Positions 1 through 56,200 are shown, numbered from the stretch's first letter. The stretch is 64,000 nucleotides of DNA from Scenedesmus sp. PABB004 (GCA_014905635.1 JABVCE010000008.1:1054001-1118000), one strand, 5' to 3'. Numbers and translations: made by a program. Notes: generated by a model from the letters alone, not told the origin.

Positions 1-158
1 CTGTGAGGCGCGTGTGTGGTGCGTGCGTCGCGGCCGCTCGGATCGCGCACTCCGCCGCGTTCCGGAAGATTCATGCCGCCGCCCCGCGCCGCCCCGCGCC
101 GCGCCGCGCCGCCCCGCCGTCCGGCGCCACGGCCTCGGTTGAGGGCGCGCTGGGCGCC

Positions 159-504
159 ATGGAGCCGGAGCCGGAGCCGCCGCCGCCGCCGATCGGCGGC
201 GGGCAGCAGGAGGCGCAGCAGCGCGCCGGCGCGCCGGCTCAGGCCGATCCCGCGCACCCCGTGGCGCCCGCCGGCCTTTTCGCGCTGCCGGTGCTGAACT
301 GGGGCGCGCCGCAGCCCGCGCCGCAGCCGGCGGGCGCGGCTGCGCTGGCGCCCAGCGCAGCCGCGCCCGCCGGCGGCTGGCGCCGGCTGGCGCCGCGCGT
401 ATCGCGGGCCGGCAGAGGACGACTGGCTGCAGCCGCCGGAGCAGCAGCAGCAGCAGCAGCAACAGCAACAGCACCAGCACCAGCACCAGCACCAGCAGCA
501 GCAC

Positions 505-535
<31 letters not shown>

Positions 536-852
536 GCGGCGCGGCGCCGCGGCAGCCGCCCGCCGCCGGCGGCTTCGCATACCAGGAGGTGGTGCGCGGG
601 CCGGCGCGCCAGGACCTGCCGGGGCACGACTGTGCTCAGTGCCGCGACTTCTACGGCGCCCTCTCCACCTGGGGCGCGCCGGCGCCGGGCACCATGATGC
701 TGCTCCCGTGCACGCACGCGCTGGCCCCGGCCGCGCTGCAGGCCGCGTCGCGGCACCGCGCCAAGCACGCGCCTCCCGAGACCCCGCCGGGGTTTTGGGA
801 CATCGGGTTCACGCCCGATGAGCAGGCGGCGGTGTTTACGCTTGGCGACCCT

Positions 853-885
<33 letters not shown>

Positions 886-1292
886 GGCGTGCCCGCCCCG
901 TGCGGCGGGCGCAGCCGCAGCCCGCCGCAGCCGCAGCAGCAGCGGCCGCCCATGGACGCGTCGCCGCCGTGGCGCACCGTGGCGCGCGCGCGCCGCCCCC
1001 CCGGCGGCGGCGGCGGCGGCGGCGGCGGCGCGCTGCCCGCCGCGCGCGGGCCGCGCCCTGGCCGCGCAGCCGCGCCCGGCGGTGGCGGCAGGGGCAGCCC
1101 CGGGCCCAGCAGCAGCAGCAGCGGCAGCGGGAGCAGCAGCAGCAGCGGGAGCGGCAGCGGGAGCGGCAGCGGGAGCGGCTGGCGCGGCGGCAGCCCGGCG
1201 CCGCGGCCGGACGACGCGCCGGTGCAGGCGCCGGCGCCGCCGCCGCCCGTGGCGCCGCAGCAGCGGCAGCCGCAGCCGGTCGCGCCGCCGCC

Positions 1293-1337
<45 letters not shown>

Positions 1338-2664
1338 CGTGGCGCCGCAGCAGCGGCAGCCGCCGGCGGCCGCGCCAGCGCCGCCGCCGGCGCCGCCGAA
1401 GCTCATGGCGCCGGCGGGCACGTGCACCGGCGCGCAGCTCGCGCTGCTGAAGCGCGAGCTGGAGGACAAGGGGTTGGCGCTCGTGCACGGCCGCGCCAAC
1501 GGCCTGTGCGGGTTCTCCCTCATCGCGATTGCCGTGCTGCGCATGCTGGACGCGGCGGAGCTGCAGGAGCCGACCCACGACCTGCGCAGCTTCGACCCCG
1601 ACACGCTGGACATGCTGGACGAGCAGGCGGGCGAGCTGCGGTCGCGGACGGTGGAGCTCATCCGCGAGCTGGGCTTGAGCGACCAGCTGCACCCGAGCGG
1701 CGTGCCCTGGCGCGATGCGCTCGGCGTGGCCGGCGCGGACGCCGTGGAGCTGGCGCGAGACCTGGAGGCCGGGGGCTACCCCAGCGAGGCTGAGCTGCGG
1801 GCTCTGTGCATGAGCCTGGCAGACTCGGTCTTCCTGGCCGACGTCTACAGCCTTGACACGGTCCTCATCGCCCTGCAGGAGCAGGGCGACGCGTTCCAGG
1901 CGAGCGAGGGCAACCGGCTCGTGGCGCTCGCGCTGCCGGCCGCCGCGGCGCCGGAGTTTGCGCCCGTGCTCGGGGCGGAGAAACTGCAGCTCGACCACTG
2001 GGCGGCGGTGGTGCCGGCGCGCAGGCCGCCGCCGCGCAGCCCGCCGGCGCTGCTGCGGCAGGCGCGCGAGCCACCGCGCGGCGCGCCGGCGCTGCCGCGG
2101 CTGCAGGAGGCGGCGCCGCGCGCCGCGGAGCTCGCCGCGGACAGCAGCGACGAGGAGGGCGGCCCGGCGGCGGGCCAGCCGCTGCAGCCGCTGCAGCCGC
2201 TGCAGCCGCTGCAGCCGCAGCAGCTCGGGCGCAAGGAGCGCCGCGGCAAGGGCAACGGCGCCGCGGCGCCGCTGGGCACCAGCAACAGCGACAGCAGCAG
2301 CAGCAGCAGCCGCCGCCGCCGCCGTGCCGCGACCGCCGCCGCCATTGACGCGGCGTGGGAGAAGCCGGTGGAGCGCCGCGCGGAGCTCGACGCGTCCAAG
2401 GCGCGCGCAGAGGCGGCCGGGCCGTCCGACGAGGACGTGCGGCGCTCCAAGCAGCGCGCGAGCTACGACGCCAAGCACGCGCGCCGCGGCGGCGGCGCCA
2501 GCGTCAGCGGCGGCGGCACGAGCCGCGCGCGCAGCGACAGCGCCGGCGGCAGCGCCGGCAGCAGCACCGGCGGCGGCACGAGCGGCGCGCGCAGCGGCGG
2601 CAGCCCCCGGGCCCCCCGCCCGCGCGCGGCATCGACCCCGCCGAGCGCGCGGCGCAGCCCGTGA
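159..2664 (+). CDS. CtIP/Sae2/COM1 C-terminal domain fused to an OTU-like cysteine protease domain, with low-complexity linkers; one frame change near 300-380
   Basis: 571-815 reads GFAYQEVVRGPARQDLPGHDCAQCRDFY...ASRHRAKHAPPETPPGFWDIGF, matching the CtIP/Ctp1 CxxC, RHR and TPPGFW signature. 1450-2016 reads KGLALVHGRANGLCGFSLIA...ELRSRTVELI...GYPSEAELRAL...DHWAAVV (OTU pattern; Cys 1507-1509, His 1996-1998). ATG 159 is in a different frame from the domain-bearing ORF 589-2664. Confidence 0.7.
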
Positions 2665-2842
2665 GCGGCGCCGACTGGGAGGCGCTGTGCCGCCACGCGC
2701 AGACCCGCGGCGAGGCCGCCCGCGCGGCGGCGATGGCGGCGGTGCTCTCGGCGCCCGCCGCCAGCGTCGGCTCGTCCGCCAGCAGCGCCGCAGCCAGCAG
2801 CGACGAGGAGGAGGGCGGCCCGGCGGCGAAGCGCGCGCGCGT

Positions 2843-2944
2843 GCTGGACAGGCCGCCGCCAACGCGCCGCCAGTTGCCCTGGCTAAAAAAGTCGACTTTT
2901 TTAGCCAGGGCAACTGGCGGCGCGTTGGCGGCGGCCTGTCCAGC
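2843..2944. repeat. Perfect 102 bp palindrome (51 bp arms, no loop) centred on GTCGAC
   Basis: gctggacaggccgccgccaacgcgccgccagttgccctggctaaaaaagtc|gacttttttagccagggcaactggcggcgcgttggcggcggcctgtccagc, checked base by base. Confidence 0.97.
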
Positions 2945-4780
2945 GACCTGCGCCACACGCTGGAGCAGGCCTGCGGCGTCAACGAGCTGCAGCGCGTGCC
3001 CCTGCCGGCCTGGGTCACAGGCCGCCTGCACCACCACCTGCTCAACCCTCTCGCGGAGCTGTACAACACCAACCTGCAGCTCCACCTCGCCGACGGCGAG
3101 CGCCTGGAGAAGGCGCTCGACGCCGCCGCCCTGCAGGCGTGGTTTGCCGCGGGCTGCGCCGGCACGCCCAGCCGCGCCGCGCGCGACTGCCTCATCGCCG
3201 GCGGCGCGGCGCTGCTGTACAGCGCGTCGCCGCTGCTCTGGGAGCGCCAGGGCGTGCTGCAGCCGGGCGAGGGCGTGGTGCCCGCGGCGGCGGGCGACGG
3301 CCAGGACGCCGGCCGGCTGCGGCTGGCCATGGCGATGATGCGCGACATGCTCGCGCAGATGCGCCTGCACCTGGAGCAGCCCTACCCGGCGGCGGCGGAC
3401 GGCGAGGCGCGCGCGCCCGCGGCCGGCGCGGCGCGCACGCGCCAGGCGGCAGGGGCGCAAGCGACGCCCGGCCTGCAGCGCTGGCAGTCCGACGAGGCGG
3501 CCGGCAAGCACGGCCGCGTGCTCGACTGGGCGCGGAGCGGCATGCAGCACGCGCCGGACGCGGGCGCGCAGGCAGGGGGCGCGCCGCTCGTGCCGCAGCC
3601 GCCGGAGCCGCCGGCGCACGGCGCGGGCGCGGCGGCGCGGCAGCAGCACGACGCGGCCTACGACGCCTGGCGCGCGGCGCTGGCCCGGCAGCTCGAGGGC
3701 CTGGCGTACCGGGAGGGCGACGCCGACGCCATGGCGCGCCGCGTCGCGCGCGACTTTGTCGTCATGCTCGGCCAGCAGCACATGTTTGCTGCCTGCGCGC
3801 CGCGGCTCGCGGACTCGCTGGCAGCCCAGCAGGGCGCGGCGGCGCGGCCGGCGCTGGAGGCGATGCTGCGCCGCGCCGCGTCGCTCGGGGCGGCCCCGGA
3901 GCCAGCGTCGGCCGGCGCGCTCGCGGCGGCCGTCGCGTCGCTGGCAGAGGCGCTGGACGGCAGCAGCGGGGGCAGCGACAGCGGCAGCAGCAGCAGCAGC
4001 AGCCGCAGCCGCGGCCAGCGTCCGCCGGCGCCCCCCAAGCTGCTGGACGCCAGCGCCCAGGAGCCGCGCCTGCGCGAGCTGCAGCGGGCGCGCGAGCTGG
4101 GCAAGCTCGAGGCGGCGGTGCAGCGCCTGCGCGCCGCCGTGGATGCCAGCGAGGCGGCCGTGCGTCTGCGCAAGGAACCCCTCAAGGGCCTGCAGCGGGT
4201 GGTCGCCAGCCGCGCTGCGGTCCAGGGAGGTATGGCGGGCCCGCCCGACCACGCGCGCAACCGGCTGCGCCGCCTGCAGCGCAAGGACGCGCACGCGGCG
4301 GCGCTCCGGCGCCGGCTGGCCGTAGAGGAGGCGCGGCTGCTCCGCGCCCAGGGGCAAGGCGCCGCGCCGGGCACGGCGCCGGGCCAGGGCCCGGGCGCGG
4401 CGCTGCCGGCCGCGGCCGCGGAGCGGCTGCGGCTGGCGCTGGCCGCGCTGACCGCCGCCGGCGACGCGACGGTGGGGGCCGACCTCGCAGCCGTGGAGGC
4501 GGAGTGGCAGGCTGCCATGGCGCAGCACCACGAGCGCGACGCGGCGCTTGTGCAGCACCAGCGGCGCTTCGCGCGACCGCACGGCGCGGCGGCGGCGCCC
4601 GACGCGGACGCGGCCCGCCGCGCGGCGGACGCCGCGCGCGCCGCGCGCGACCAGGGCGCGCGGCTGCTGGGCGACTGCGGCGCCTGACTGGCGGCAGCGC
4701 GCGGCCACCTGGCGGCCGCGCGCGGCCACCTGTCCGCCGCAGCGGCCGCGCAGGGTCGCGCTGCGCCGGCGCCGCCGGCC

Positions 4781-4827
<47 letters not shown>

Positions 4828-6699
4828 GCCCGCGCTGCGCACGCCCGAGGAGGCGGCGGCGGCTGTCGCGGCGCTGCGTCGCGATGTCTCAACCGGCTGG
4901 TGCCGCGCGGTGTGCGCGACGCTCGAGGCGGTGCTGGCTGCGGCGAGCGCCGCCGGCGCGGCGCCGCTGGCGGCGGCGCCGGCGCCGCCCGGCGGCCGCA
5001 GCGGCGGCGCGCAGCCGCCGCAGCGCGCCGGTGGCGCGGGGCAGCACCCCGACGCGCTCGTCGCGGTCGCGGGCGCGTGCAAGGTGCTGCGCGCCCTGCG
5101 CTCGCGGCACGCCGCGCGCGTGGCGCTGCCCAGGCGGCGCGCCTTCACGCTGGCGCCGGTGCCCAAGTACGGCACCCAGCACCTGCACCTGTCCACCACG
5201 GGCATGCAGGCGCTGGACGCGGCGCTGCGCGCGCGCCAGGCCAGGGCGCCCGCGGGGGGCCAGCCGGCAGGCCAGCCGCCGCCGCCGCCGCCGCCGCCAC
5301 CGCCGACCCAAGAGGGCGGGGGCTACGATCCCGTTTGGGATGCATATTTTCATTGTGGCCGGCGCCCCGGGCGCGCGCGGCGTGCTGCACGCCAACACGC
5401 GCTTCGCGGGCTCGGTGACCTTTGATGGCGGCGCTGCACGTGCGCGTGCGCGTTGAGGGCGCCGCCGACCCCGCCCCGCGCCGCGGCCAGCAGTCGCGCG
5501 CCGCCAAGGCGGCGCAGCGCGCGGCAGAGCACCGCGCGGGCGTGGCGGCAGCGCGGCGGCTGCTCTGCGACGCACTGGCGCCGCACGGCGTGGCCGACGA
5601 GGCGGCGCTCGACGCGCTGCCGCTCGACCCGTGCGAGCTGCGCGGCGTGGAGGGCCTGCCGCCGGGGCACGCCCTGCGCGGCGCGGCCGCGGCCGTGCAC
5701 GCGGGCGTGCGCGTCGTCGGAATCGACCCGGGCCGGGCCCGCATGGTTTGTGCCGCGACTTGGCGGCAGGGCCCGGGCTGCACGCGCGTCGCGCACCGCC
5801 GCATCGCGCAGCGGCGCTGCCCCAACGCGCCGCGCCACCGCGGCGACCACGGCCGCCACTACGAGGCGGAGCGCATCATTAGAATAAAGACCGCCGCGCA
5901 CCGCGACGCGCGCGGGATCGAGCGGCACCGGCTTTGGCAGGGGGGGCGGCCGGGGCGGCCGGGGCGGTACGACCGCCGCCCGCCCGGCGGCGGCGACTGC
6001 GTGCATGCCTGCCTGAACCGCGTGCCTGCATACTCGGGCACGAGCGTCGCCGCCGCCGCCGCGTGGCGCAACGGCCGGGTGCATCATGTGCTCAACAATG
6101 CATTCGCATATAGCTTGCTTGCGTGCCGTGCAGAGTGTGCGTGGCGGCTGCGGAAGCACGGGCTGAAGCAGCGCGCGCTGCATGCGGCGATTCAGTTGAC
6201 TGCATACGGCCGGGTCTTTGTGCGCGGGCGCGTCCGGCAGCACGCGCGCCTGCCCGCCGACCTGCCCGCGGTGGTGCTGGGCATCGGGGACGCCAGCCTG
6301 GGCATGGGGGGCTGCATCTCGGGGCCGGGGCCGCCGCGGCAGGCGCTGCTGGCGCTGCTGCGCACGTACTACGCGCGCCGGCGCGTCGCCGCGGTGCTCA
6401 TGGACGAGCACCGGACCAGCATCACCTGCTCTGTGTGCGGGGCGCGCGTGGAGAAGCTGCGGGGCACCTATGGTCTGATGCAGTGCCCCGGGTGCACGGT
6501 TGTCGCGCCGCGCGACGACAACGCGGCGCGCAACATCTGCGCGCTCACGCTGCACGAGTTGCTGCGCGGCGGCCGCGGCACGGCGGGCGGCGCGCGCCTC
6601 GCCGGCGCGTTCCGGCAGGCGGCCGCCGCCGCGGTGGGCCCCCCCGGCGTGAGCGGCGTGCGCGGTGCGCTGCGCTCTCCGTCCTGGGCAGGACGTTAA
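2891..6699 (+). pseudogene. Fanzor1-type (eukaryotic TnpB-like) RNA-guided RuvC endonuclease, disrupted by one in-frame stop and two frameshifts; 5' extent uncertain
   Basis: RuvC-I VRVVGIDPG (D 5725-5727); rearranged RuvC-II VVLGIGD...VLMDEHRTS (E 6406-6408); zinc finger CSVC...CPGC; RuvC-III PRDDNAARNI (D 6514-6516). Upstream Fanzor1-like motifs FTLAPVPKYGTQHLHLSTTGM, WDAYF and FAGSVTFDG (5140-5430), plus LLNPLAELYNTNLQLHL (~3040-3090). TGA at 4685-4687; frameshifts near 5348 and 5430. Confidence 0.85.
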
Positions 6700-6900
6700 A
6701 TGGCCTCTTGCTGTTGTGTTGTGTTGCCAGGTTAGGTCAGGCGTGTGCGCGTGCGTTTCTCGCATGGTCACCCGTTCCGGGTGGGGCGGACCCCCTCGCG
6801 GGGGCACCGACCTGCGGGCCGGTCCCAAACCGTTATGCCTCGCGCCGCTGTGGACTGTTTCAGGCGGCCGGCGATCAGAGGATGCCCATGGTCAGTGTTG
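6700..6900 (+). ncRNA. Candidate Fanzor omegaRNA scaffold / element right end
   Basis: Lies directly 3' of the Fanzor stop and has three consecutive hairpins: CACCCG-ttc-CGGGTG (6769-6783), CCCCC-tcgc-GGGGG (6791-6804), ACCG...CGGT (6806-6823). The position matches where TnpB/Fanzor guide RNAs are encoded; boundaries are inferred. Confidence 0.4.
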
Positions 6901-7695
6901 GCGGCGGCGGCGCGCGCGCGCGGCGGTGGCAGCGCCGCGCACGCGCGCCGCGCGCCCGCGGCGTCGGGGCGCCCCCCGGGGCGCCCCGGCAGCCCCCATC
7001 CCCCCAGCCGCCGGTGTTGAGACCACCGGCCGGCGCTCCCACGGCGGTAGCGAGGCCGGGGAGCACGCGGCACGCGGCAGCCCGCCAAAAGCTGATGGCC
7101 GGGCGCTCTCGGAGTCCCGTGACGACACGCTGCCCGGGTGAGCCCGCACCCCCCGATCGGAGCACACCACCTCCAGGCCTGAGTAGGAGTGCGGGGGGAG
7201 GGTGGACACCCTCCCGGGCGCGCGCGCGCTGGGCTGCCGGCGCCCCCGCCGCCGCTCCCCGCGCACCCGACGCCCCGCCCAGCTCGCCCAGCGTAAAGGG
7301 CCGCCTCAGCATCCCCGCGGGCGGCGCAGCTGTCGGCGGGCGCGCGCGGGCGCGGGCGCGCGGCGACTCGAGCAGCGGCCTCGGTGTGGGCGGAGCGGCG
7401 GCGCACGAAGGAAGGACAGCGCACGCGCGGCGGGCCACCAGCGCCCGCGAAAGTGTCACAGACAAACGAAAACCGGCCGCGCCGGCCGCCCGGGCGCTCC
7501 CCGCAGGCTGCGCAGCCGCCAGCGCCACCCTGAGTCCACTCGTTCCCTCTCCGCCCCGCAGCGGCGCGTCAGCGACGCTGGTGCCAGCGAACGAAGCGCC
7601 CATCACACACCAGCGCTCACACCGCGCGCGTGTGGGCCGCTGAAGCCCCGCATGCGGCGCGGCGGACCCCACAGGCCGCCCCCACACGGCCTACC

Positions 7696-9870
7696 ATGGC
7701 CGCCAGTCCCAAGCAGCAGCGCGCGCCCCGCGGCGGCGGCGGCCGCGCGGCAGCGGCGCCGCCAGGCCGCCCGCTGCTGCTGCTGGCCGCGATGACCGGG
7801 GCCCTCGCGCTGCTGGTGAGCTGGGACCCGGCCCCAGGCGCCGAATCGCGATGCCGCCGCCGGCCGGGCCGGGCGGCAGCCGCCAGCGCCGCCGGGTGCC
7901 CGCGAGCGCCGCCGCCCGCCCGCCCGCCCCCGCCGCCGCCGCCGCGCAGGTGGGCTACGCGCTGCACACCTTCTTCCTCTGGACGCCGCCGCCGCAGCCG
8001 CTGGACGCGCCGGGCGCGCGGTTCTCGGAGGCGCGCGCGCGCGAGCACGTGCGCGTGCTCACGCAGGACATCGGCGTGCGCTCGGTCGGCACGCCCGGCC
8101 TGCAGGCGGCGCACGCCTACATCCGGGAGCGCTGCGCCGCGCTGCAGCGCGCCGCGGCGGGCAGCGGGCTCGTGGTCGAGACAGCGACGGAGCACTACAG
8201 CGGCAGCACGCCGTTTGACTTTGTCGGCGACCGCTTCATCAACGCGTGGCACAACATCACCAACATAATGCTCCACATCTCCCGCGCCGACGCGCCGCGC
8301 GACGCGCCCGCCGTCATGCTCGTCGCGCACCACGACAGCCCGGTCGGCTCGCCCGGTGCGCGCGCGCCGCGCGCCGCGCCGCGCGCCGCGCCGCGTGCTG
8401 CGCGACGTGCGCCCACGCCGCGGGCGCGCGCGCACGCGCAGGCGCGGGCGACGACGCGAGCAACGTCGGCGTCATGCTAGAGCTCGCGGCCAACCTGGTG
8501 GCCGCGCCCGCCGCCTTCCCCGCCTCGCCCGTTCTCCTCCTCTTCAGCGGCGCGGAGGAGCCGCTCTGCCAGGCACGCCCCCCCCCCCCCCCCCCCCGCG
8601 GCGCCGCGCGGCCCGCCGCGGCCTGGGACGCACCCGGCGCGCCTCTCGCCGCCTCTCAGCGCCCCGCCCCGCGCCGCCCCGCCCCGCCCCGTGCCGCGCC
8701 GCGGCGCGCAGTCGGCGGCGGCATTCATGCAGTCGAGCCCCTGGGCGGCGCGCGTGGGCGTGTTTGTCAACCTCGAGAGCATCGGCCCCGGCGGCGCGCC
8801 GATCGTCTTCCAGCACGCGGGTGCGCGTCGCCGCCGTGCAGGCGCCTGTCTCGTGCGCGTGTCTCGCGCGCCTCTCCTCCTGCGCCCGCAGCGCGCCCGC
8901 CCGCTGGCGCCTCTGGCGGCTCGGCGCGCGCGCGAGCCCGCCCGCCCGCCCACCGCCCGCCCGCCGCGCCGCCCGCCCGCCCGCCCGCCCACCGCCCGCC
9001 CGCCCCGCCCGCCCGCCCGCCCGCCCGCCCGCCCGCCCGCCCGCCCGCCCGCCCGCCCGCCCGCCCGCCCGCCCGCCCGCCCGCCCCGCAGGCGCGTGGG
9101 TGATCGAGGCCTACTCCAAGGGCGCGGCGCACCCGCGCGGCGGCAGCTCGGCGCAGGCGCGCGCGCAGCCCGCGCCGCCGCGCCGCCGCGCCGCCGCCGC
9201 GCCGCCGACGCCCACGCGCGCCGGCGCGTGCGCGCGCCGCAGGACGTGTTTGACCTGGGGCTCGTCCTCGGCGACACCGACTTCCGGCAGCTCTCCTACC
9301 TCCACCGCGGCGGCCTGCCCGGCATCGACATCGCCTACCTGCTCGCCGGCGCGGCGTACCACACCGACCGCGACACACTCGACGCCATCCGCCCCGGCGT
9401 GCTGCAGGCGCGGCGGCGGCGGCAGAGGCGGCGGCCGCGGCGGCAGAGGCGGAGGCCCTGCTGCGGCGCCACGGCGCGCGGCCGCCGCCCGGCAGCGCCC
9501 GGCGGGCGCCGACGCCCGCCGCCGCCTCTGCCGCCGCCTCTGCGGCCGCTCAGGAGATGGGCGAGACGCTGACCGGCGCGGTGGCGTCGCTCGGCGACGC
9601 GCTCGCCGCCGCCGGCGAGCACTCGCCGGCCGCGCTGGCGGCGCTGCTGGCGCCGCGGGAGCACAAGCGGTTCTTCCTGAGCGTCGCGGGCAAGGCCATG
9701 CTCACCTACTCGACCGCCACGGCGGAGGTGCTGCACGTGCTGCCGCTCGCGGCCGTGCTCGCCGCGCCCGCAGCGCTCGCGGCGCTCGCGCCCGACACGG
9801 TGCGCGCGCGCGCGGCGCGCACGCGGGCGGGCGCGACGCGCGGGCGCGCGGGCGCGCGCTGACGCGGCGC

Positions 9871-34498: not shown

Positions 34499-36194
34499 TC
34501 ACGCCGCGCCGCCGCCGCTCCCGCGCCCCCCGCCGCCGTCGCCGTCGTCGGGCGGCGGGCCGAGGAGCAGCTCCAGCATGTCCAGCGCGGCTGCGGGGAT
34601 GCGCGTGCCGGGGCCGAAGATCGCGCCGACGCCCTGGGCGTACAGCTCGGCGTGGTCCTGCGGCGGGATGATGCCGCCGACGACGACGAGCGCGTGGCCC
34701 ATGCCCGCGGCGCGCAGCTCCGCGAGCAGTGCCGGCACGAGCGAGCGGTGCCCCGCGGCCTGGCTGGAGATGCCCACGATGTGCACGTCCGCGTCCACCG
34801 CCTGCAGCGTGACCTGTGGCGCCGGCGGGGGCGCGGGCGGGCGGGCGCGGCGGGGCGGGGCGGGGCGTGCGTGTCGCGGCGCGCCCGGGCGCCGGCGCGC
34901 GCGGCGCGTGCCCAGCGCGCCCGCGCCTCGGCGGGCGTCTGGAAGAGCGGGCTGACGTCCACGTCAAAGCCCAGGTCGGCCAGCCCGCTCGCGAGCACGC
35001 GCGCGCCCCTGCTGGCGGCGGCGGCGGCGGCGTCGGCGCGGCGGCGCGGCCCGCGCGGCCCGCCCGCCGCGGCGGCGCCCGGGGCAGGCGCCGCAGCGGC
35101 GCCGCAGCCGCGCCGCGGCGCGCCACCTGTCGTGGCCGTCTTGCCCCATCTTGGCGATGAGGATGCGCGGCCGCCGCCCCGTGGCGGCCTCGAAGCGCGA
35201 CACCGCGGCCTCGACCCGCGCGACCTCCGCGTCGCACTCCAGCCCCGCCGCCGCGGCGCCGGCGCTGCGCTCCGCGGCGTAGAAGCCCGGCGACACCGCC
35301 GTCGACGCGGCGTGCCGGCCCCACGCCCGCTCGAGCGCGCCACTGATCTCGCCGACGGTGCAGCGCACGCGCGCGGCCTGCGGCGCCGCGGCGCGGCGGC
35401 GCGGCGGCGCTCGGCAGCGCCCCGCCGTGCCGTGTGCCCCGCCACGCCGCCCGTCCCACCTGCACCGCCAGCTCCATGAGGTTGGGCGTCCGCTCGCTCC
35501 CCCGCGCCGCCGCCTCGAGCGCGTCGAGCGCCGCGCGCACCGCCGCGTCGTCGCGGGCGGCGCGCACGCGCGCCAGCCGCGCCAGCTGCGCCGCGAGCAC
35601 CGCGCTGTTGTCGATCTGCCGCACCGGCACCGCCTCGGCGTCTGCGCGCGCGGCGCGCGCCGGCCGTCGGCCGCGCCCGCCGTGCGCGCGCGACATGGCC
35701 GCGCGCCGCCGCCGCCGGCGCGGGCAGCCGCCGCCGCGGCGGGCGCGGCGCACCCGGCGAGGGGTTTATGAATTTGTTGACCCCGACGATGACCTGCGAC
35801 CCGCTGTCGATGTGGGCCTGCTGCCGCGCCGCGCACTCCTCGATCTTCCGCTTCGGCAGGCCTGGCCGGCGCGCACGCCGCCGCCGAGCGGCGCTGCGGT
35901 CAGGCGGCGGCCGTGCAGGCGGCGGCCCACGCGCCCGCGCGCGCTAGGCCCCCGCGCCGCGCCCCGCCCACCCGCGAGCAGCGCCTCCGTCATGCCGCCC
36001 AGCGCCTCCACCTCGGCCAGCAGCGCCTCGGCCGCGGCCTCGAGCTCCGCGGTGAGGCACTCCATGAAGTACGAGCCGCCCCAGGGGTCGGCGACGCGCG
36101 TGATGCCAGTCTCCTCCTGCGGCGGCCCGCCGCCGGCCGGCGGCCGCGCGGCGCCGGGGGGCGCATGTTGGCGCGGGGCTCGGGGCGCGCGCGG

Positions 36195-36283
<89 letters not shown>

Positions 36284-36287
36284 GGGC

Positions 36288-36333
<46 letters not shown>

Positions 36334-38646
36334 GCGGGGCGCGCGCAGCAGGCGCGCGCCTGGAGGATGATCTGCGTGTTGCGCGCGAGGCGCGCCGAGG
36401 CGTCTGTCGGCAGCGCGAGCGCCTCATCAAAGGAGTTGGTGTGCAGGCTCTGCGTGCCGCCGAGCGCCGCCGCGAGCGCCTCGACCGTGGTGCGGACCAC
36501 GTTGTTCAGCGGCTCCTGCGCCGTCAGGCTGTACCCGCTCGTCTGGCAGTGCGTGCTGCGGCCGGGGAGGGGGGGGCATGCGGCGTGGGCGCGGGCGGAG
36601 TGAGCAAGCAAGTGCGAGGGTGCGGGCTGGCTTGAGGGGGCGCGAGGGAGGAGATGGGGGCGGGCGCAGGCGGGCCGCCGCCGGCGCCGCCGGCGCCGGC
36701 GCCGCACCGCAGCACGAGGCTGGCCTCCTTGGCCGGGGCAAAGCGCTCGCGCACGCTGCGCGCCCACAGGCGCCGCGCGGCGCGGAGCTTGGCGATCTCC
36801 TCGAAGAAGTTCAGCCCGACGCCGAAGAAGAACGACAGCCGCGGCGCGACCGCGTCCACGCCCAGCCCCGCCGCCTGCGCGCGCGGCGCGGCGCGGCGAC
36901 GGGGACGGGGCGCCGGCCGGCGGCGGCGGCGGCGCGTGGGCGGCGGCGCGGGCAGGCGCAGGCGGCGGGGCAGCGGCGGGCGCGGGCGGGCGCGCGCCTG
37001 GGCGCAGCGGATGTACTCGAGGCCGTCGGCAACGGTGAACGCGAGTTCGATCGCCGGCGTCGCGCCGGCCTCCTGCGCGGCGGCGAGGGATGGGGGAGGG
37101 GCGCGCGGCACGTGCGCGCGGCGGCCGCCGGGGCCCCGCCCGCCCAAGCCTTGCGCCCCCCGCCCCCTCCCGTCCCCGGCCGCCGTTCAGGCCCCTCCGA
37201 GCCCCCGGCGGGGGCGCTGCCGCGCGGCTCTCCCGCCCCCACCTGCATGTGGTAGCCGCTGATGCTGACGGGGTGGAAGCGCGGCATCGCCGCCGCGGTG
37301 TAGGCCATGACGTCGCCCACGACGCGCATGCTGGGCCGGGGCGGGTAGATGTAGGTGTTGCGCACCATAAACTCCTGGCACGCACGCACGCCAAGCCACA
37401 GGCCGGGGGGCAGGGCCGCGGCGCGGCAGGGGTGGGTGCGGCGCCGGGCGCGAGGCGCGCGCGCCAGGGCCATCCCACCACCACGCAATCAGTCACGCAG
37501 TCAGTCACACACGCAGTCACAGTCGGTCACACACGCAGTCACGCAGTCAGTCAGTCAGTCACGCAGTCAACCAGTCACACACACGCAGTCACAGTCAGTC
37601 GGCCGGCCCCCGCACCTTGAGTATGTCGTTCTGGATTGTCCCCGTCAGCGCCGCGGGCGGCACGCCCGCCTCCTCCGCGGCGACGACAAACATCGCGAGC
37701 ACCGGCAGCACCGCGCCGTTCATCGTCATGCTCACGCTCACGCGGTCGAGCGGAATGCCAGCAAACAGCGCGGCCATGTCCTCCACGCTGTCCACCGCGA
37801 CGCCCGCCATGCCGACGTCGCCTGGGGCGGCGCGCGCGCGGGCGGCGGTGGCGCGGGCGCGCGTGGCGTGCGCGGGCAGCGCGTGGGCGCGCGGGCGCGC
37901 GCAGGCGGCGGTGGCGCGGGTGCCAGGCGCGTGGCGGGTGCCGGGCGGGCGCGCACCCATGACGCGCGGGTGGTCGCTGTCGTAGCCGCGGTGCGTGGGC
38001 AGGTCGAACGCGACGCTCAGCCCCATGCCGCCCGCCGCCAGGCTCTTCTGCGCGCGCGCGCACGCGCGCGCGCGGCGGGCGCGGCCCGCGTGGGCGACGC
38101 CGCCGCGCGTCGCCGCCGCGGCCGGGTGCGCAACGGCCGCTGCCGGCGCCGCCGCCGCCGCCGCGCCTTGTAAAAGGCGTTGGACTCCTCCGCCGTCGAG
38201 AAGCCGGCGTATTGGCGGATCGTCCACGGCCGCGCAGCGTACATCGTGGCGTAGGGCCCCCGCGCATAGGGGTACACGCCCGGCACCTCGTCCGCCACGC
38301 CCGGGCCGAGCGCGGCGAGGTCGTGCGCCGTGTACAGCGGCTTGATGGCGATGCCCTGCGGCGCCGTGGCGCGGCACACACGTCGGCGCGGCCGCGCAGG
38401 CCGCCGCCGCGGGCGTCGCCGCCGCAAGGCCCGTGCCCGCCGCCGCCGCCGCACGTCGGGCGTCGTGTGCGTGAGCGCGTCCGGGTCCTTGCCCTTCAGC
38501 TCCTTGGTCGCCTTTGCGCGCCAGGCCGCCAGGTTGGCGTCCGCCAGGCTGGACGCATGCCGCAGCGCGCGCAGGGCGGACGGCAGCGCGGCGAGCGCGG
38601 GAGGGGCGCCGGCGCTGCGCAGGAGCAGCGCCGCCGCAGGCTGCAT
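34499..38646 (-). CDS. MMUT: Methylmalonyl-CoA mutase (adenosylcobalamin-dependent), mitochondrial, multi-exon
   Basis: [98 protein letters not shown] (DxHxxG), SSQAAGH; transit-like N-terminus. Confidence 0.97.
36195..36331 (+). repeat. (GGC)n intronic microsatellite
   Basis: Long ggc run within an MMUT intron. Confidence 0.92.
37486..37600 (+). repeat. Degenerate CAGTCA(C) tandem array in an MMUT intron
   Basis: cagtcacgcagtcagtcacacacgcagtcacagtcggtcac...; a related array lies at 11466-11555. Confidence 0.8.
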
Positions 38647-38938
38647 GCTGCCGCGCGGAGATCAGGGCCGCGACAATGCGCAACGCATCCGAAAGGCCAT
38701 GGAGCTGCTGATCGCGGTGCGCGGCGGCGCTGGGGCTGCGTATGCGCGATGAGCTTTGGTGTCGCGCCGCTGCTGCTGCCGGTTTCCGTCGCTGGTCTCG
38801 CGGCTCCACAAAATCACCCCCGAAAGTCCGCAGAGCAACTCGTCGGCCTCAAAAGACCGAGTCGGGACGGCCGCACGAGCACGACGGCGCGCGGCAGCGG
38901 CGCAGCAGCGGCGGCGCGGCGCGGTCTGAGCTGCGCTG

Positions 38939-39593
38939 GACGAGCGGGCCTTGGCCGCCCCGCTCCTGAGCTCCGAGCCTCCGGGACAGGCGCCCGCCGG
39001 CAGCGGCGGCAGCGGCGGCCCCGCATCGCCTGCTGCGGCCGCGGCGCTGGCCAGCGCGCGGTCATGCCCTGACCGGACGAGAGCGCGCGGCGGCCGGCGT
39101 TGCGCGCCGGACCTGCGCCACGTAGATGCCGCACGTGTTTGACTCGTGCGTCCTGCCACCTCCCCGCTCGCGCGCCCCGTCCCGACCGCGCCCGCCCCGC
39201 CGCCCGTGACCGATCGACCGACCGCCATGGCGCTCCTGGGCTCTCACCGCACGGCCGTGGTCGCGCGCGCGCGCGTGGGGCGCGCCGCGGGTGAGCGCAC
39301 GCTGGCGGGCGTTGGCGGGCGCTGGCGGGCGCGGCGGGCCATTGGGGCTCACGCGCGGCCCACCGCGCCCGCAGGCCTGCACGTGGTGGGCTTCGTGCGC
39401 ACGAGCCCGGCCCCCGTCCGCCAGGCACCATCGCCTGCTCCCCGCGAGGCGGTGCTGGAGGAGAGCGCGCGGCAGTGGCTGGCCGCCATCAACGAGCGCC
39501 GCCTGGCCGACCTGGACGCGCTGACGGCAGAGGACGCGCTGTATCATGTGAGCAGCGGCGGCGGGCGGTTGGTGCCGCCACCACACGCGCGCC
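38939..39593 (+). pseudogene. Truncated inverted duplicate of the 5' end (upstream region, exons 1-2) of the SnoaL gene
   Basis: Near-identical reverse complement of ~42445-43108; ATG 39227 MALLGSHRT..., EAVLEESARQWLAAINERR...ALYH, then similarity stops inside intron 2. Confidence 0.88.
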
Positions 39594-40745: not shown

Positions 40746-42825
40746 TCACATGCCGCCGAGCACCGAGTCCTTCACGCCCAGCTGCTCCGCCTGGCTGCGC
40801 CCGCAGGCGCGGCAGTCCATGTTGAAGTACCTCCCACGCTCCGCGAGCGACATGGGGCCGCGGAACATCAGCGTCCTGCGCGCGCGCGCGGAGCGCGTGA
40901 GCGGCGCGCGCGAGCGGCGCGCGCAAGCGGCGCGGCGCGACCTCGGGCCGCCGCCGCCGGCGCTGCCGCGCGCGCGCCTGTTGATGCGCTGCTCGTCGTC
41001 AAAGTGGTGCACCAGCACGCCGCTCGACAGGCCCACGAGCGTGCGGCTGCGCTTGCTCGACAGCACCTGCAGCGTGGGCGCGGACGCGAGCGGGGTGTGT
41101 GGTCTGGCATCACTCCCTCCGCCGGGCGCACACACGCACGCCGGGCGCGCCGCGGCGCGCGCCCCGCAGCGCCTCACGTTCTGGAAGTGAACAAACAGCA
41201 TGCGGCCGTCGGCGCTGAACGCCTCGCTGTGCCAGAGCGGCGCGCCGCTCAGCTCCGCCGACCGCTCGGCGCAGTAGGCGAGGCAGGCCTCGCGGCTGGC
41301 CAGGTTCATGCCCCGCCACACGCCGGTCGCCTCCTGCGCGGCGCGGCGCGGTCAGCGTGAGCCGCCGTCGCGCGCCAGCCCGCTCGCACGTGCGGCAGTC
41401 GCTGCGGCTGCTGCGGCCGCGCCGCCGCCGCTGCGTGTGCACACACCATGCAGCGGTAGTCGGGCGCCAGCGCGCCGTCCAGTGCCGACGCGTCCGCGCC
41501 CGGCACTGCGCCAAAGACCTCCCTGAACGCCAGCGCCGCCGCCTTGGCGCGGCCGCGCGCCGCGGCGCCGCCGGCGCGCGGCGCCGCCGCGAAGGCCGCG
41601 TCGGCGACCGAGGCGGTCGGGCTGCCGGCGGGGCTGCCGGCGGGGCTGCGCGCGGCGGCGACGACGGCGCGGCAGTCGACGGGCTTGTAGCTCCGCGTCA
41701 GCAGCCACTTTGCCTCATCCGTAGACGCGCCGCGCCAGGTCCACTGGTCGGTGATCTGGCCGGCCTCGTTGAAGTGGAGCCTGCGGGGGACAAGCGGTGC
41801 GTGGAATGTGCGGGAATGTGTGAGAGGGGGTGCGCTGCCCGCCGGGGCAGGCAGCCTCGCGCGGCGACGGCCCAGCTGCGCAGGCCCGCGCCGCGGCTGG
41901 CCCCGCCAGCCCGCGCACCGCGTGACCCCGTAATGCTCAAAGGGCTGGTTGGTCGTGGGGCGCTGGGGGATGAGCGAGAGGCGCGCCACGCCGCTCGCGC
42001 GCCACATCACGTACGCGTCGCGGCTGGCCGGCTCGACCGCGACCTGCCGCGCGGCGCGCGCACGCGCATGGGGCGCCGGCGTCGGTGGGGCAACCGACGC
42101 TGCTGCAGCGCCGGTGATGCAGCGCCGCCCGCCGCCGCAGCGCCGCGCGCACGACGCCGGCAGCGCGTGCGTCGCGCCGCACCTGCACCGCGTCGATGCG
42201 GTAGTCGGGCACGCTGCGCAGCCAGTCCCGCACCACCTTGCGCATCGCCGTCCTGCCCTGCGCGGGCTGCAGGACCCACATGCCGTCCTCCTGCGGCGCA
42301 GCAGCACGCGGCACCGGCGCCGCGCGCAGAGTGAGCAGCTTCCCGCGGTGGCTGACCGCGCGCGCCAGCTGCTGCGGCGGCCTGGACGAGTTTGCCTGAT
42401 CGCAGCGCCCCGCCCGCGCGCCCGGGGGGCCCAGATGCTGCGGCGGCGCGCGTTGTGGTGGCGGCACCAACCGCCCTCTGCCGCTGCTCACATGATACAG
42501 CGCGTCCTCTGCCGTCAGCGCGTCCAGGTCGGCCAGGCGGCGCTCGTTGATGGCGGCCAGCCACTGCCGCGCGCTCTCCTCCAGCACCGCCTCGCGGGGA
42601 GCAGGCGATGGTGCCTGGCGGACGGGGGCCGGGCTCGTGCGCACGAAGCCCACCACGGGCAGGCCTGCGGGCGCGGTGGGCCGCGCGTGAGCCCCAATGC
42701 GTCCCCCTCGCCGCCCGCCGCGCCCGCCAGCGCCCGCCAACGCCCGCCAGCGTGCGCTCACCCGCGGCGCGCCCCACGCGCGCGCGCGCGACCACGGCCG
42801 TGCGGTGCGAGCCCAGGAGCGCCAT
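40746..42825 (-). CDS. Organelle-targeted protein with two SnoaL/NTF2-like domains, multi-exon
   Basis: ARQWLAAINERRLADLDALTAEDALYH, GRTAMRKVVRDWLRSVPDY, AYVMWRASG, LHFNEAGQITDQW; second domain LDGALAPDY...VLVHHFDDEQRIN. Confidence 0.75.
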
Positions 42826-43152
42826 GGCGGTCGGTCGATCGGTCACGGGCGGCGGGGCGGGCGCGGTCGGGACGGGGCGCGCGAGCGGGGAGGTGGCAGG
42901 ACGCACGAGTCAAACACGTGCGGCATCTACGTGGCGCAGGTCCGGCGCGCAACGCCGGCCGCCGCGCGCTCTCGTCCGGTCAGGGCACGACCGCGCGCTG
43001 GCCAGCGCCGCGGCCGCAGCAGGCGATGCGCGGTCGCCGCGGCCGTCGCTGCCGGCGGGCGCCTGGCCCGGAGGCTCGGAGCTCAGGGGCGGCCAAGGCC
43101 CGCTCGTCAAGCACAACACGCGAACACCAACAATTACAACAACAGCTGGCGC

Positions 43153-52189: not shown

Positions 52190-52771
52190 ATGCTCGGCGT
52201 GCCGTCGGCATCGCTCGCGAGCGCCGACACCTCGGTGTCCGACCCCTCCACGCTTGCGCCGCCCGCGGTGCCGCCGTTTGGCGTGCTGCCCGCGCCGCCG
52301 CCGCGTGGCGCCGGCGCCGGCGCCGCGCCCGACGCCGGTGGCGACGGCGGCGGCATCGCGGAGCTGCTCTCCGCCGTCACGGCGGCCGCGAGCGCGGCGG
52401 GCGTCAACCCGGCGCACCTGGAGGGCGTACTCGGCCTGACCGGCCTGCTCGGCGGCGCGCCCGCGCCCGGCGGCGGCGGCGGCGCTGGCGCCGGCGGCGA
52501 CGAAATCACGGCCGACCAGGCGGCCGCCGCGCTGACGAGCGCGTTCCAGGCGGCCGCCGCGGCGGCAGGCGTCGACCCCGCGTTGGTTGCCGAAGCGCTG
52601 GCAAACCTCGGCGCCGCGGCGGCCGCGCAGCGCGAGGCCGGCGGCGCGCCGCTCGCGCTGCCGTCGCCGGGTGGCGCCGGCGCCGGTGACGGCGGCGCGA
52701 GCGGCGGCGGCGTGCAGCCGATGGGGCCACCCGCGGCGCGCCCGCCGGAGGCGCAGCCGCAGCGGGCGTGA
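52190..52771 (+). CDS. Ala/Gly-rich hypothetical protein, possibly the orphaned 3' exon of a broken gene
   Basis: Coding-like codon usage (IAELLSAVT, EITADQAAAALTSAF); no recognised domain. Confidence 0.4.
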   Translation: MLGVPSASLASADTSVSDPSTLAPPAVPPFGVLPAPPPRGAGAGAAPDAGGDGGGIAELLSAVTAAASAAGVNPAHLEGVLGLTGLLGGAPAPGGGGGAGAGGDEITADQAAAALTSAFQAAAAAAGVDPALVAEALANLGAAAAAQREAGGAPLALPSPGGAGAGDGGASGGGVQPMGPPAARPPEAQPQRA

Positions 52772-53228
52772 GGGCGGGCGGTTTGGCGCACGGGGGCGGG
52801 CGCGGGCCGCGGCGGCCCGGCCGTATTGCATTGTGTTGTTGTTGTGTGTGTGTCGCCGCAAGCCATGGGCGAAGTGCTGGCGCGCGCCGCGCGTGCTTCA
52901 GGGAGTCGTCTTGCCTTCGGCGAGTGCCGCACGCGCTGCGCCGCGGCGCACGCCGCCTGGCTGCGCCGCCTGGCTGCGGCCGGGCGCGAGGTCAGGCGCA
53001 CTTACGGCGGGCGTGGCTTAACGCGATCAGCACAACTGCTGAAGCCGCCGCCAGCCGGCGGCAAGGCCGCGCGCATCGATAGTGTTACCAGCCGCCGCTG
53101 CCATCTCCACTGCCCGCCGCGCCCTCCCACTCTGCGCTTGCTGAGCGGGGGACTCGGCCGCAGCTCACGAGTCCCCGTCGACAACGCCGCGGCCGCACCC
53201 GGACTCGCTCCCCCACCTGCCAGCTGCC

Positions 53229-56200
53229 ATGGTCACCATCGTTGGCGAGCCGGAGACCAAGGCGGGAGACCTGAAGGTGGTGGTGGAGGACCAGCATGCG
53301 CGCCGGACGGCCAACTGGTGGGCGCCCGCGGCTGCGGCTGCGCGTTCCGCCCCTGGCGCCGCCGGGGCTGTGCGGGCAGCGTCGGGGTGGAGTGATCGCT
53401 TATTTTTATCGACAGGAGCAACCGCGGCGCCCCCACCGTGTGCAGACGCAACACGCGGCGCCTCGCCGCCGCTTTCGCGCCGCCGCCGCGCTCGCCCTCA
53501 CCGCGCCCGCTGCGGCCGTTCCGCAGGCTCGATGTCGCCTATCACTCCGTCACCGGCATGTGAGCGGGCGCCTCCGCCGGCCCGAGCGCCGCTCGCCGAG
53601 CTGCGAGCGTCCCGTGCTGACTCGTGCGCTGCGCGTGCGCGTGCCGCGCAGGATCGGCGCCGGCGTGCTGAGCCTGCCCGCCGTGTTCTCCCACCTGGGC
53701 TGGACCGGCGGCATCATAGTTCTCCTCTTCAGTTTCTGGGTCAGGTGCGGCGCGCGCAGCGCCGCCGCCTCCATCGCCCGCTGCTCGCGCGCGGGGCCCA
53801 ACGCCGTGCCCCGCACACACACCTCTGTGACCGCCTCTGCAACACCACCCAACCTCCCATGCTGCCTGCCGCAGCTGGTACACCTACAAACAGCTCGTCT
53901 ACATGCACGAAGTGCGGCGCGCGCGCGGCGAGCCGCTCCGCGTCCCTCCCTCTTTCTCCCCTCTCTCTCCCTCTTTCCTCCCTGCCTGCCCGCCGCGCCG
54001 CCCGGCGGCGGCGCGCGAGGGGCCCGCCTTGCTCGTAACGCCACGCCGCGTCGCGCTGCGCGCAGGTCCCCGACCTCGACTGCAAGGAGGGCGGCGGCCT
54101 GCGCCGCTTGGACCGCTACGACCAGCTCAGCACCTACCTCCTCGGTGCGCGCGCGCCCTGGGTCTCTCTAGCGTCAGGGGTTGGGTTGTCAGGGCTCTGC
54201 ATCAGGGCCTGCGCTGGGTTTATTGGGGAGGCTAGGGGGCGAAAGCGCGCGGGGCGCGCGGGCTCGGCGGCCGCACGGCGCGCCCCCGACCTGACCCGAC
54301 ACCGCGCCGTGTGTCGTGCCGCGCAGGCGAGCGGCGCGGCAAGCTCGCGCTGATGCCCTTCCAGCTCGTGGGGCTGGTGGGCACCGGCATCACCTACACC
54401 GTCGTCGGCGGCGACAGGCGCGCCGCCGCGACCGCCGCTGCCGTGCCGCGTGGGCGCCCCGCTCGCCCCTCCCTCCACCCCCTTCCGCGACGCGCTGGCG
54501 CCTCTCGCCGCCGCCTCTCTCGGCACGCCCACGCCCGCGCACGCTCACGCTCACACTCTCGCTCTCTCCCTCTCTCCCTCCCTCTCTCCCACGCGCCCGC
54601 AGCCTGCATGCCTTTTGCGACTTGGTGTCGCACGGCGGCACCGCGCACATGAGCAGGTGGCCCTTTTACATAATCTTTGGCGGCCTGCAGCTCCTGCTCT
54701 CCCTGGTGGGTTTTGTGAAGGAGTTGAGGGGGGGGGGGGCGCTTGGGTTGTGTTGAAACCCAGCGGAGGTCGGCCGGGACGGCTCTGCCCGCGGCGCGAG
54801 CGTGCGCGCACGCTCGCGCACCCGCCCACCAACGAACGCCCGCCGCCCCCCCCCCCCCCCCCCCGCCCGCCCGCCCGCCACTGGCACCCACCACGCCTGC
54901 TAAACCCCGCCTGGCAGCTGCCGAGCTTCAACGAGCTCAGCCTCGTGTCGCTCCTTGGCGCCATCATGAGCGTGGGCTATTGCGCCATCGCCGTCGCGAT
55001 GAGCGCGACGATCAGCCCCGCGCCCGGGACGGTCTCATACGACCCCATGGCGGTGCGTTGACCGCGGGTCAAATAGGGCTTAGGGTTTGACCAGCGCCGG
55101 TCGCGGCCGGCTGACGCCGCCCTCCCCTGGCGCGCGCGCCCACACGCGGCTGCTCGCCCGCCGCCGCCGCTGCCGGCGCCAGGTGCCGCGGTCGCCCGTG
55201 TCGCGGGCGATGGGCGTGTTCAACGCCATCTCCCGCGTGCTCTTTGCGTACGGCGGGCACAACGTTGCGCTGGAGATCCAGGTGGGTTTTGAGGGCGAGG
55301 GTTTAGGGGAGCGGCGGGCTGCGGGGGCGCCGGGCGCGCGTGGGCGCCGGCGGCGGACGCGCGCGCAGGCGCGCGCGGCGGGCCGACGCCGCGGCCGCCG
55401 CCGCCGCCCCCGCCCCGCCCACCCCCAGGCGACCATCCCGATCGGCGGCAAGCACCCGGCGAGCAGCGTGCCCGCAATGATGCGCGGTGCGGCCGCCGCG
55501 CCGACCCCGCGCCGCGCCGAGCCGCGCCGCGCCGCGCCGCGCGCGCGCGCGCCGCCGCCCCGCGCGCCCCCCACGTACGCACCGCCTCACCCTCCCGCCC
55601 TCTAAACCCTAAACCTACACCCCCCCCCTTCCCTCTCCTCAATAAAGGCGTGAACGCCACCTTCATCCTGACCGGCCTCATCTACTTCGGCGTGTCCGTC
55701 GTGGGCTTCTGGGTGAGCGAAGGTTCAGCGCCCCGCCCCGCCGCGCCCGCCGCCGCGCCCGCCGCCGCGCCCGCCGCCGCGCCCGCCGCTGCGCCCGCCG
55801 CCGCGCCCGCTGCCGCGCCCGGCCCGCTGCCGCGCCGCAGGGGCCGCCGCGTCGCCCCCATCCTCGACCCCTTGCCAACCCCTACGCCCCGCCGCTACGC
55901 TGCCAAACCCCTGAACCCCTGAATTGCAGGCGTTTGGCACCGGCGTCGCGGACAACGTGCTGCTCTCCTTCACGCACGGCCCCCACAGCTGGGCCGTCGC
56001 CATGGCCGGTGCGCGCCGCGCCGCCGCCCCGCGCCGCGCCGCCGCCCCGCGCCCGCCCCGCGCCCGCGCCGCGCCGCGCCGCGCCGCCCGCTAAACCCCG
56101 CCCGCGCGGCCCCGCCACACCCCGCCAACAGACATGTTTGTGGTCGTCCACGTGGCGGCCGCGTACCAGGTCTACACCCAGCCGGTCTTCCAGATCATTG

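Follow-up and report, generated by a model that had tools for sequence, protein, structure and literature searches.

A window of 64,000 nucleotides (nt) from Scenedesmus sp. PABB004 (GCA_014905635.1 JABVCE010000008.1:1054001-1118000; positions are counted from its first letter) carries, at 159–6699 on the + strand, an open reading frame (ORF) with a CtIP/Sae2 C-terminal domain followed directly by the coding sequence of a Fanzor nuclease. The favoured interpretation, to which we would give slightly less than an even chance, is that this stretch forms a single gene of composite make-up, or a single transcription unit, within a selfish element that bears a Fanzor, and we infer that the CtIP part belongs to that element. 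The order of the parts would be a short, non-canonical CtIP/Sae2-domain protein, low-complexity linkers with an orphan Cys/His domain, a basic patch resembling a nuclear localization signal, and a Fanzor1-type TnpB nuclease. When a variant in which the host has domesticated such a unit is also counted, a single unit of either kind becomes slightly more likely than not. An earlier note on this DNA had started from the premise that the two parts adjoin. That premise holds and is stronger than was stated there: the two coding regions follow each other without a break and could form a single gene.

The G+C content is approximately 80% across the whole window (0.74–0.84 per 2 kb). Stop codons are rare at this composition, so open frames alone mean little, and ORFs of several hundred codons are indeed present in all six frames. 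Profile matches and codon periodicity were therefore relied upon. One coding-like stretch on the + strand, from approximately 120 to 6664, is outlined both by a seven-state hidden Markov model (HMM) and by the GC of third codon positions. It lies in frame +3 to ~400, +1 to ~2500, +3 at 2506–2891, +2 at 2892–5267, no frame at 5268–5422, and +1 at 5423–6664, and behind it 1.2 kb of aperiodic sequence reaches to the M28 peptidase gene. At 2376 nt, the frame +2 run of 2892–5267 is longer than any other single-frame run in the window. Runs of at least 1200 nt make up 3 of the 7 segments here, compared with 4 of 71 elsewhere in the window, where the median is 391 nt, and this argues for one unit.

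The TGA stop of the first ORF (2662–2664) and the next ATG (2733) are separated by only 68 nt, and recognizable Fanzor-side sequence, in frame +2, begins at about 2890–2945. The spacing of ~230 bp on the same strand given previously is right, both parts being on the + strand. Coding-like sequence occupies the interval after the first stop, however, and the linkage is therefore tighter than first reported. The lack of an intergenic gap supports the one-unit reading, as the other non-coding-like segments in the window range from 191 nt to several kb according to the HMM. The interval is taken up by a bridge region (2538–2842, +, frame +3), which spans the first ORF stop, has its sole ATG at 2733 and ends in ...SSDEEEGGPAAKRARV. 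This end contains a basic KRAR patch and the second copy of a repeat discussed below. Across the first stop, 84 successive codons of frame +3 (2540–2789) all end in G or C; the longest such run in 21.5 kb of non-coding-like sequence is 65 codons, and 10 runs reach at least 34. Coding-like sequence lacking a start codon thus stands in front of the Fanzor side, as would be expected if the two sides belong together.

A different explanation is that the two are chance neighbours. The first would be the alga's own COM1/CtIP gene, with low-complexity inserts and a lineage-specific domain, and the second a decaying Fanzor element inserted behind its stop. This is a real possibility, to which we give appreciably less than an even chance. 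Gene lengthening by low-complexity inserts is common in GC-rich green algae, and ordinary host genes make up the remaining gene content of the window. However, there is no gap of the size of a 3' UTR, the sequence upstream of ATG 2733 is coding-like without an ATG of its own, and no leftover host 3' end is found behind the Fanzor, where 6665–7845 has no periodicity.

The joining of the two coding regions could have been achieved through splicing. A GT-AG candidate intron of 104 nt at 2661–2764 (CCC/GTGAGC...GCCAG/C) would take out the stop and bring frames +1 and +3 together; it is comparable in size to an 86-nt GT-AG intron (G/GTGCGC...CGCAG/G) recognizable in the M28 peptidase gene nearby. 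Both frames are also compatible within 2538–2630, where C5, G3 and C6 runs are present. The two coding regions are thus probably joined through the 2661–2764 intron or by a frameshift within 2538–2630.

The earlier claim of a CtIP/Sae2 C-terminal domain is borne out. The ORF that carries it, and the Cys/His domain behind it, occupies 159–2664 (+): it starts at ATG 159 in frame +3, continues in frame +1 from 375–394 and ends at the TGA. In frame +1 it is open at 298–2664, with GC at codon position 3 of 0.90–1.00 from ~300 to 2500; periodicity is weak before ~120. The domain lies at 568–822 (+), and the Pfam profile PF08573 matches the 298–2664 ORF with an E of 8.7e-11 (43.3 bits against a cut-off of 19.8), the best stretch placing residues 145–171 on profile positions 79–105 of 110. 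The motifs CxxC, RHR and TPPGFW are readable at 568–810 (...HDCAQCRDFY...SRHRAKHAPPETPPGFWDIGF). CxxC, RHR and TP..FW are motifs conserved in SAE2/CtIP proteins.

The architecture around this domain is non-canonical. It comes ~135 codons after the likely start at ATG 159, with more than 600 further codons of open, periodic frame behind it, rather than standing at the extreme C-terminus as in canonical CtIP/Sae2/COM1. The 135 codons in front are of low complexity, rich in P, A and Q, and no N-terminal coiled coil is visible in them, although exons upstream of the window start are possible. CtIP/Sae2/Ctp1/COM1 is a host cofactor of Mre11-Rad50-Nbs1 in end resection. The window protein shares with this family the SAE2 domain above gathering score and the CxxC, RHR and TP-x-x-FW motifs, but differs in the position of the domain, in showing no coiled coil within those 135 codons, in the long sequence behind the domain and in abutting a Fanzor. 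A domain near the start with so much frame behind it argues for the one-unit reading and, with no coiled coil visible in front, against a chance neighbour that is simply the host gene. A protein search with the CtIP-domain region returned no relative among 312 candidates.

The identification of the second part as a Fanzor also stands. Its catalytic part is found at 5423–6699 (+), ending with TAA 6697–6699. In the frame +1 ORF 5419–6699 the Cas12f1-like_TNB profile (PF07282) matches at 6364–6537 (E 1.2e-9), and the 10 PDB sequences at E≤1 are all of the TnpB/Cas12/Fanzor type, the best being the mimivirus 'TnpB-like protein L79' (9b0l_P, E 0.0018). RuvC-I (GIDPG, 5719), the zinc ribbon (CSVCG, 6427, and CPGC, 6484) and RuvC-III (DDNAARN, 6514) are all readable. 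The aspartates of GIDPG and DDNAARN supply two members of the RuvC triad. The glutamate of MDEHRTS (6400), a position that no alignment with a solved Fanzor1 covers, could presumably be the third, relocated as in Fanzor1. This is a Fanzor rather than a TnpB as the host is eukaryotic: the neighbours are split eukaryotic genes and the nearest named protein is green-algal. The C-terminal part had no match to longer proteins among 8000 scored candidates. Locus scans with the Fanzor part gave 17 metagenome matches and one in a viral contig, each of them distant and TnpB-like (31–49% identity over 43–137 residues).

The N-terminal two thirds of the Fanzor side (2945–5267, +, frame +2) contains an in-frame TGA at 4685–4687 and matches no known family in Pfam. 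An ESM Atlas comparison of 2945–3700 returned only generic helical-repeat leads with low recognition (1406) and is uninformative. Between this part and the catalytic part is an aperiodic, AT-richer stretch (5268–5422, +) across which the frame changes from +2 to +1, and which is either an intron (candidate 5333–5457) or the product of two frameshifts. Within the catalytic part there are further AT-richer islands at 5873–5892, 6092–6120 and 6190–6201, and GC at codon position 3 falls to 0.75–0.83, which is unusual for coding sequence of this genome. Contigs of three metagenome runs break at 5903–5943, just downstream of the first of these islands. Behind the stop is a non-coding tail (6700–6912, +) with a GC of 0.65–0.72 and no periodicity, the expected place of a guide (omega) RNA and of the right end. 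The predicted fold of 6640–6912 is no more stable than shuffled sequences (z = +0.86), and no Rfam family matches it. The poly(A) signal TGTAA occurs at 4 sites in the 64 kb, none near the CtIP and Fanzor genes, and it is therefore no marker of transcript ends here.

It is most likely that this Fanzor family is still mobile in this alga or was so until recently. Only one named relative was found, a 271-residue hypothetical protein of the same strain (P0001), which is 98% identical over 6304–6564. Beyond that segment it has an Ssb-like OB-fold domain (PF21473, E 1.2e-36; closest structure 1wjj_A), which the window lacks, and it therefore marks a second locus with the Fanzor 3' end. Its annotation fuses the last ~110 residues of the Fanzor copy to a conserved Ssb-like OB-fold protein, in a gene model spliced at a GTGAGC word that overlaps the Fanzor stop. 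The Fanzor remnant at this locus lies directly upstream of the DNA-binding host gene, on the same strand.

Contigs provide further evidence. The stretch was matched by 12 listed runs from 6 studies, all of them metagenomes and none an RNA run (best word share 0.27), and four of these, from 3 studies of freshwater or sludge, were compared (X1, X2, X5 and X6); such contigs may mix strains, copies and paralogues. Among the pieces listed, with identities of 90–100% and mostly at least 95%, the Cys/His and Fanzor parts are each present in all four runs and the CtIP domain in three, the exception being X6, which has no cover over 595–891. The X1 and X2 contigs are colinear with the Fanzor 3' part of the window, and metagenome contigs run through 6641–6912. 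In X5 and X6, 6210–6265 is missing and 6512–6613, including the RuvC-III motif, is replaced by 9 nt. These sequence differences would fit a low-copy Fanzor family with defective derivatives, as in the Helitron2-borne Fanzor1 elements of Chlamydomonas (PMC3627910, PMC10530073). The 3' end at a second locus and the deletion variants in contigs of two of the four runs support a Fanzor-bearing element at 159–6699.

Some features of the contigs carry less information. Their depth is higher over 5940–6900 (~2-fold in X1 and X2 and ~8-fold in X6, where the Cys/His contig has a depth of 13.6), but this cannot rank the parts of the gene and was not used as evidence. The loose end of one X6 Logan contig at 5997 resembles a sequencing-adapter word, so the start of that contig is probably technical. 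Contig 'joints' with sides of only 20–25 nt are probably chance matches of GC-rich sequence. Changed codons number 15 in the Cys/His region (5 synonymous, 10 not) and 10 in the Fanzor 3' part (5 and 5), which are too few to show selection.

The contigs also bear on the reading frames. A C7 run ending at ~6640 is one C shorter in Illumina-based contigs of three of the four runs and in the Fanzor copy at the second locus; with this length the stop would become TGA 6649–6651. Some indels in the window may therefore be assembly errors or polymorphisms. The earlier note had described both parts as without recognizable introns and as carrying lesions. The second half of that description fits several sites: a 10-nt tandem duplication at 375–394 (+; GGCTGGCGCC twice), the TGA at 4685–4687 within strongly periodic sequence, and a palindrome at 2843–2944 all look like damage rather than introns. 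Removal of one copy of GGCTGGCGCC would align the ATG 159 frame with the frame +1 ORF, and the duplication alone explains the change from +3 to +1. At least two or three sites of the window copy are damaged. The first half is less secure, as for each stop and each change of frame there is at least one GT-AG candidate, 43–258 nt long, that would bridge it.

These candidates are of unequal merit. The one at 399–441 to 477 is an alternative to the 10-nt duplication and has a poor donor (GTATCG). The candidate at 2841–2908 takes in most of the palindrome, ends in TTTTTTAGCCAG and would join frames +3 and +2. An intron at 4550–4753 is unlikely, since it would delete strongly periodic sequence, while one at 5333–5457 is plausible, since it covers the non-periodic, AT-richer stretch. 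Those at 2661–2764, 2841–2908 and 5333–5457 are close in size to the 86-nt intron of the M28 gene. Introns are to be expected here given that the Fanzor1 genes of Chlamydomonas have 5–10 exons (PMC3627910).

The bridgeable frame changes, together with the contiguous coding signal and the homopolymer difference at ~6640 with its possible assembly errors or polymorphisms, could be taken to favour domestication. The host would have recruited the Fanzor into a fixed repair or genome-maintenance protein, which is now a pseudogene in this strain or only seems broken through unrecognized introns or assembly indels. This is decidedly unlikely. The Fanzor 3' end at a second locus and the deletion variants are the behaviour of a mobile family, and strongly periodic sequence surrounds both the 10-nt duplication and the TGA at 4685. 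The duplication also speaks against chance neighbours, as the frame it shifts is that of the CtIP ORF itself. Damage in both halves counts in favour of one selfish unit.

A repeat also links the two halves. The SSDEE(E)GGPAA segment that was noted as shared between them is a real DNA repeat of ~40 nt, with copy 1 at 2133–2172 (+), encoding SSDEEGGPAA, and copy 2 at 2786–2828 in the bridge. The copies differ by 2 mismatches and one 3-nt indel, and their alignment scores 77, compared with a maximum of 61 in 200 codon shuffles. A repeat common to two damaged halves argues for a single unit.

The palindrome (2843–2944) is a perfect one of 102 bp, with 51-nt arms, no spacer and an AT-rich centre (AAAAAAGTCGACTTTTTT), and is placed exactly at the change from frame +3 to frame +2. 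The sole T-run lies inside it. Rfam returned 7 matches at E≤1, all of them microRNA-hairpin models below gathering score, with 4 on the palindrome. One X2 contig (record 12) follows the window as far as the palindrome centre (2895) and diverges from it beyond that point. A perfect palindrome at a frame change, this departure of X2 and the ~6640 homopolymer difference are what would be seen if assembly errors in an extremely GC-rich genome had produced the juxtaposition or some of its features, for instance the palindrome and the changes of frame. Such an artefact is very improbable, since the codon periodicity is coherent across the junctions and independent short-read contigs from four runs in three studies reproduce pieces of the CtIP, Cys/His and Fanzor parts, with the CtIP-domain piece listed in three of the four runs.

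The Cys/His region (1420–2019, +) had been called an OTU protease. It has strong codon periodicity and was surely coding, with a candidate cysteine in NGLCGF (1498) and a histidine in LDHWAAV (1990). The OTU assignment is not supported, and neither is the deubiquitinase premise. Pfam gave no OTU or other protease family for the region at E≤10, and phmmer gave no match to PDB sequences at E≤10 or to 1,835,955,588 representative proteins at E≤0.001. In metagenome contigs there were 595 pattern matches and in viral contigs 16, with no relative in either set. A single-sequence AlphaFold2 model, made without an alignment, has a mean pLDDT of 40.9 and is unusable. What remains is a weak OTU lead from ESM Atlas: 18 of the 30 nearest clusters are in one set, and the displayed cluster has Pfam OTU on 19% of its members (score 0.91). 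The features shared with it number 157–164, below the 170 that is typical for true family members. The region is therefore referred to as an orphan Cys/His domain. Its isolation among 1.84 billion representatives is as expected for a fast-evolving element protein, and in this way is consistent with the one-unit reading.

Several results weigh against the one-unit reading. The SAE2 domain keeps all of its conserved motifs, which fits a constrained host gene. The same is suggested by the contigs over 580–842, which in both X1 and X2 match the window at all 263 nt. The Cys/His region, by comparison, shows 16 differences in 572 aligned nt (X1) and 22 in 632 (X2), with in-frame 3-nt insertions. No contig in the four runs bridges any two of the parts. 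The CtIP part shows no sign of repetition: all 7 query pieces found only themselves within the window, and CtIP, Cys/His or Fanzor N-terminal pieces were present at none of the 17 metagenome loci with TnpB relatives, although tblastn re-found the TnpB match at 16 of them. At the junction, the 34 frame +3 codons that lie strictly between the usable frame +1 ORF and the ATG are equalled by the 10 non-coding control runs. By a rough estimate, an in-phase GT-AG pair at the stop would be expected by chance about 1 time in 10, so the 2661–2764 candidate is a lead and not proof.

Nor were element ends found. No terminal repeats, hairpin pair or target duplication enclosing the stretch were found, although the left edge may lie outside the window, and no terminal inverted repeat or hairpin pair was found between 1–160 or 2600–3000 and 6690–7200. 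The genome is also repeat-poor (reported as 39.8 Mb, 78.5% G+C and 1.31% repeats; PMC12571836). No published link between a transposon or Fanzor and a CtIP/Sae2 domain was found in the literature, nor in part of the supplements of the Fanzor survey PMC10530073. The intact, unrepeated CtIP domain in a repeat-poor genome is in line with chance neighbours. The second Fanzor locus, which likewise has an ordinary conserved gene immediately behind it in the same orientation, is also in line with them, as is the behaviour of Chlamydomonas Fanzor1 elements, which insert widely and are often 5'-truncated (PMC3627910).

There are precedents for parts of a composite element. Green-algal Fanzor1 genes ride on non-autonomous Helitron2 elements, as described in PMC3627910 and PMC10530073 for CRe-1/2/3 of Chlamydomonas reinhardtii and for CrFNuc (Fanzor1c). 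The window resembles these in its green-algal host, in the TnpB-type C-terminal core (D...E...C4 zinc finger...RD), in the expectation of multi-exon genes, in having 3'-end copies elsewhere and internal-deletion variants, and in the non-coding tail behind the stop, where the Chlamydomonas guide RNA lies. It differs in that asymmetric terminal inverted repeats, a terminal hairpin pair and RepHel were not found in the window, and in having ~930 codons upstream of RuvC-I preceded by a CtIP-domain ORF, a feature not mentioned in the parts of the two papers that were consulted. OTU and VTD deubiquitinase/protease domains occur in Helitron and Helentron ORFs (PMC9741609). A Cys...His papain-like domain in a transposon-linked ORF, as the weak language-model OTU lead would have it, therefore has precedent. 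The window domain, however, is placed in neither OTU nor VTD by sequence or fold, and the precedents are animal RepHel proteins that do not adjoin a Fanzor. The Helitron2-borne Fanzor1 genes and these Helitron ORFs lend the one-unit reading some plausibility.

Fanzor and TnpB nucleases are thought to retain transposons through cleavage of the emptied site, which the cell's own recombination then repairs. We know of no such element that brings its own repair-pathway factor. If 159–6699 is one unit, the Cys/His protease-like domain would share a gene or transcript with the RNA-guided nuclease. In the proposed mechanism, the CtIP domain would stimulate resection by MRN (Mre11-Rad50) at Fanzor breaks at empty sites, and the resected breaks would enter homologous recombination, by which the element would be copied back. 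That an element-encoded resection activator might steer repair of Fanzor breaks to homologous recombination, as the earlier note proposed, is speculative and rather unlikely, since it requires one unit, an active CtIP domain and homing by a eukaryotic Fanzor all at once. A related system is TnpB-guided retention (homing) in bacterial IS200/IS605 elements (10.1101/2023.03.14.532601). The nuclease family is the same, and the proposed mechanism likewise rests on break-induced recombination restoring the element. That system, however, uses host recombination and encodes no resection factor.

If the CtIP-domain ORF does belong to the Fanzor gene or element, no mobile RNA-guided nuclease before it would have had a resection activator of its own. 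The new pairing of CtIP/Sae2 with Fanzor would give a handle on how eukaryotic Fanzors bias repair. Editing tools designed for homology-directed repair would also gain a natural template in it, and it would be the counterpart of engineered nuclease-CtIP fusions. A host gene beside a dead insertion would be an ordinary finding.

The other genes of the window are ordinary split eukaryotic ones, among them those for an M28 peptidase, an RRM protein, bestrophin, ALG6/8, methylmalonyl-CoA mutase, IF3, NCA2 and a U32 peptidase. Pfam matches are present in 22 of 58 ORF pieces of the window, and no transposase or RepHel was found among the 58. The methylmalonyl-CoA mutase gene, with its B12-binding domain (34500–38660, - strand), has at least 6 coding pieces and offers a good local yardstick for the intron density of host genes. 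Within the M28 peptidase gene, probably in an intron, is a (GCCC)n-type microsatellite of ~150 nt (8950–9100). A long inverted repeat at 38960–39585 and 42454–43092, with 380 nt at 98% and 265 nt at 95% complementarity, surrounds ~2.9 kb and could represent either an inverted duplication or an element with terminal inverted repeats. Its right arm overlaps an ORF piece (42078–42686) with a weak SnoaL-like match. A further 5.6 kb at 52662–58238 has no codon periodicity, a G+C of 0.74–0.76 and a strong negative GC skew (~-0.13), unlike the gene-dense remainder of the window.

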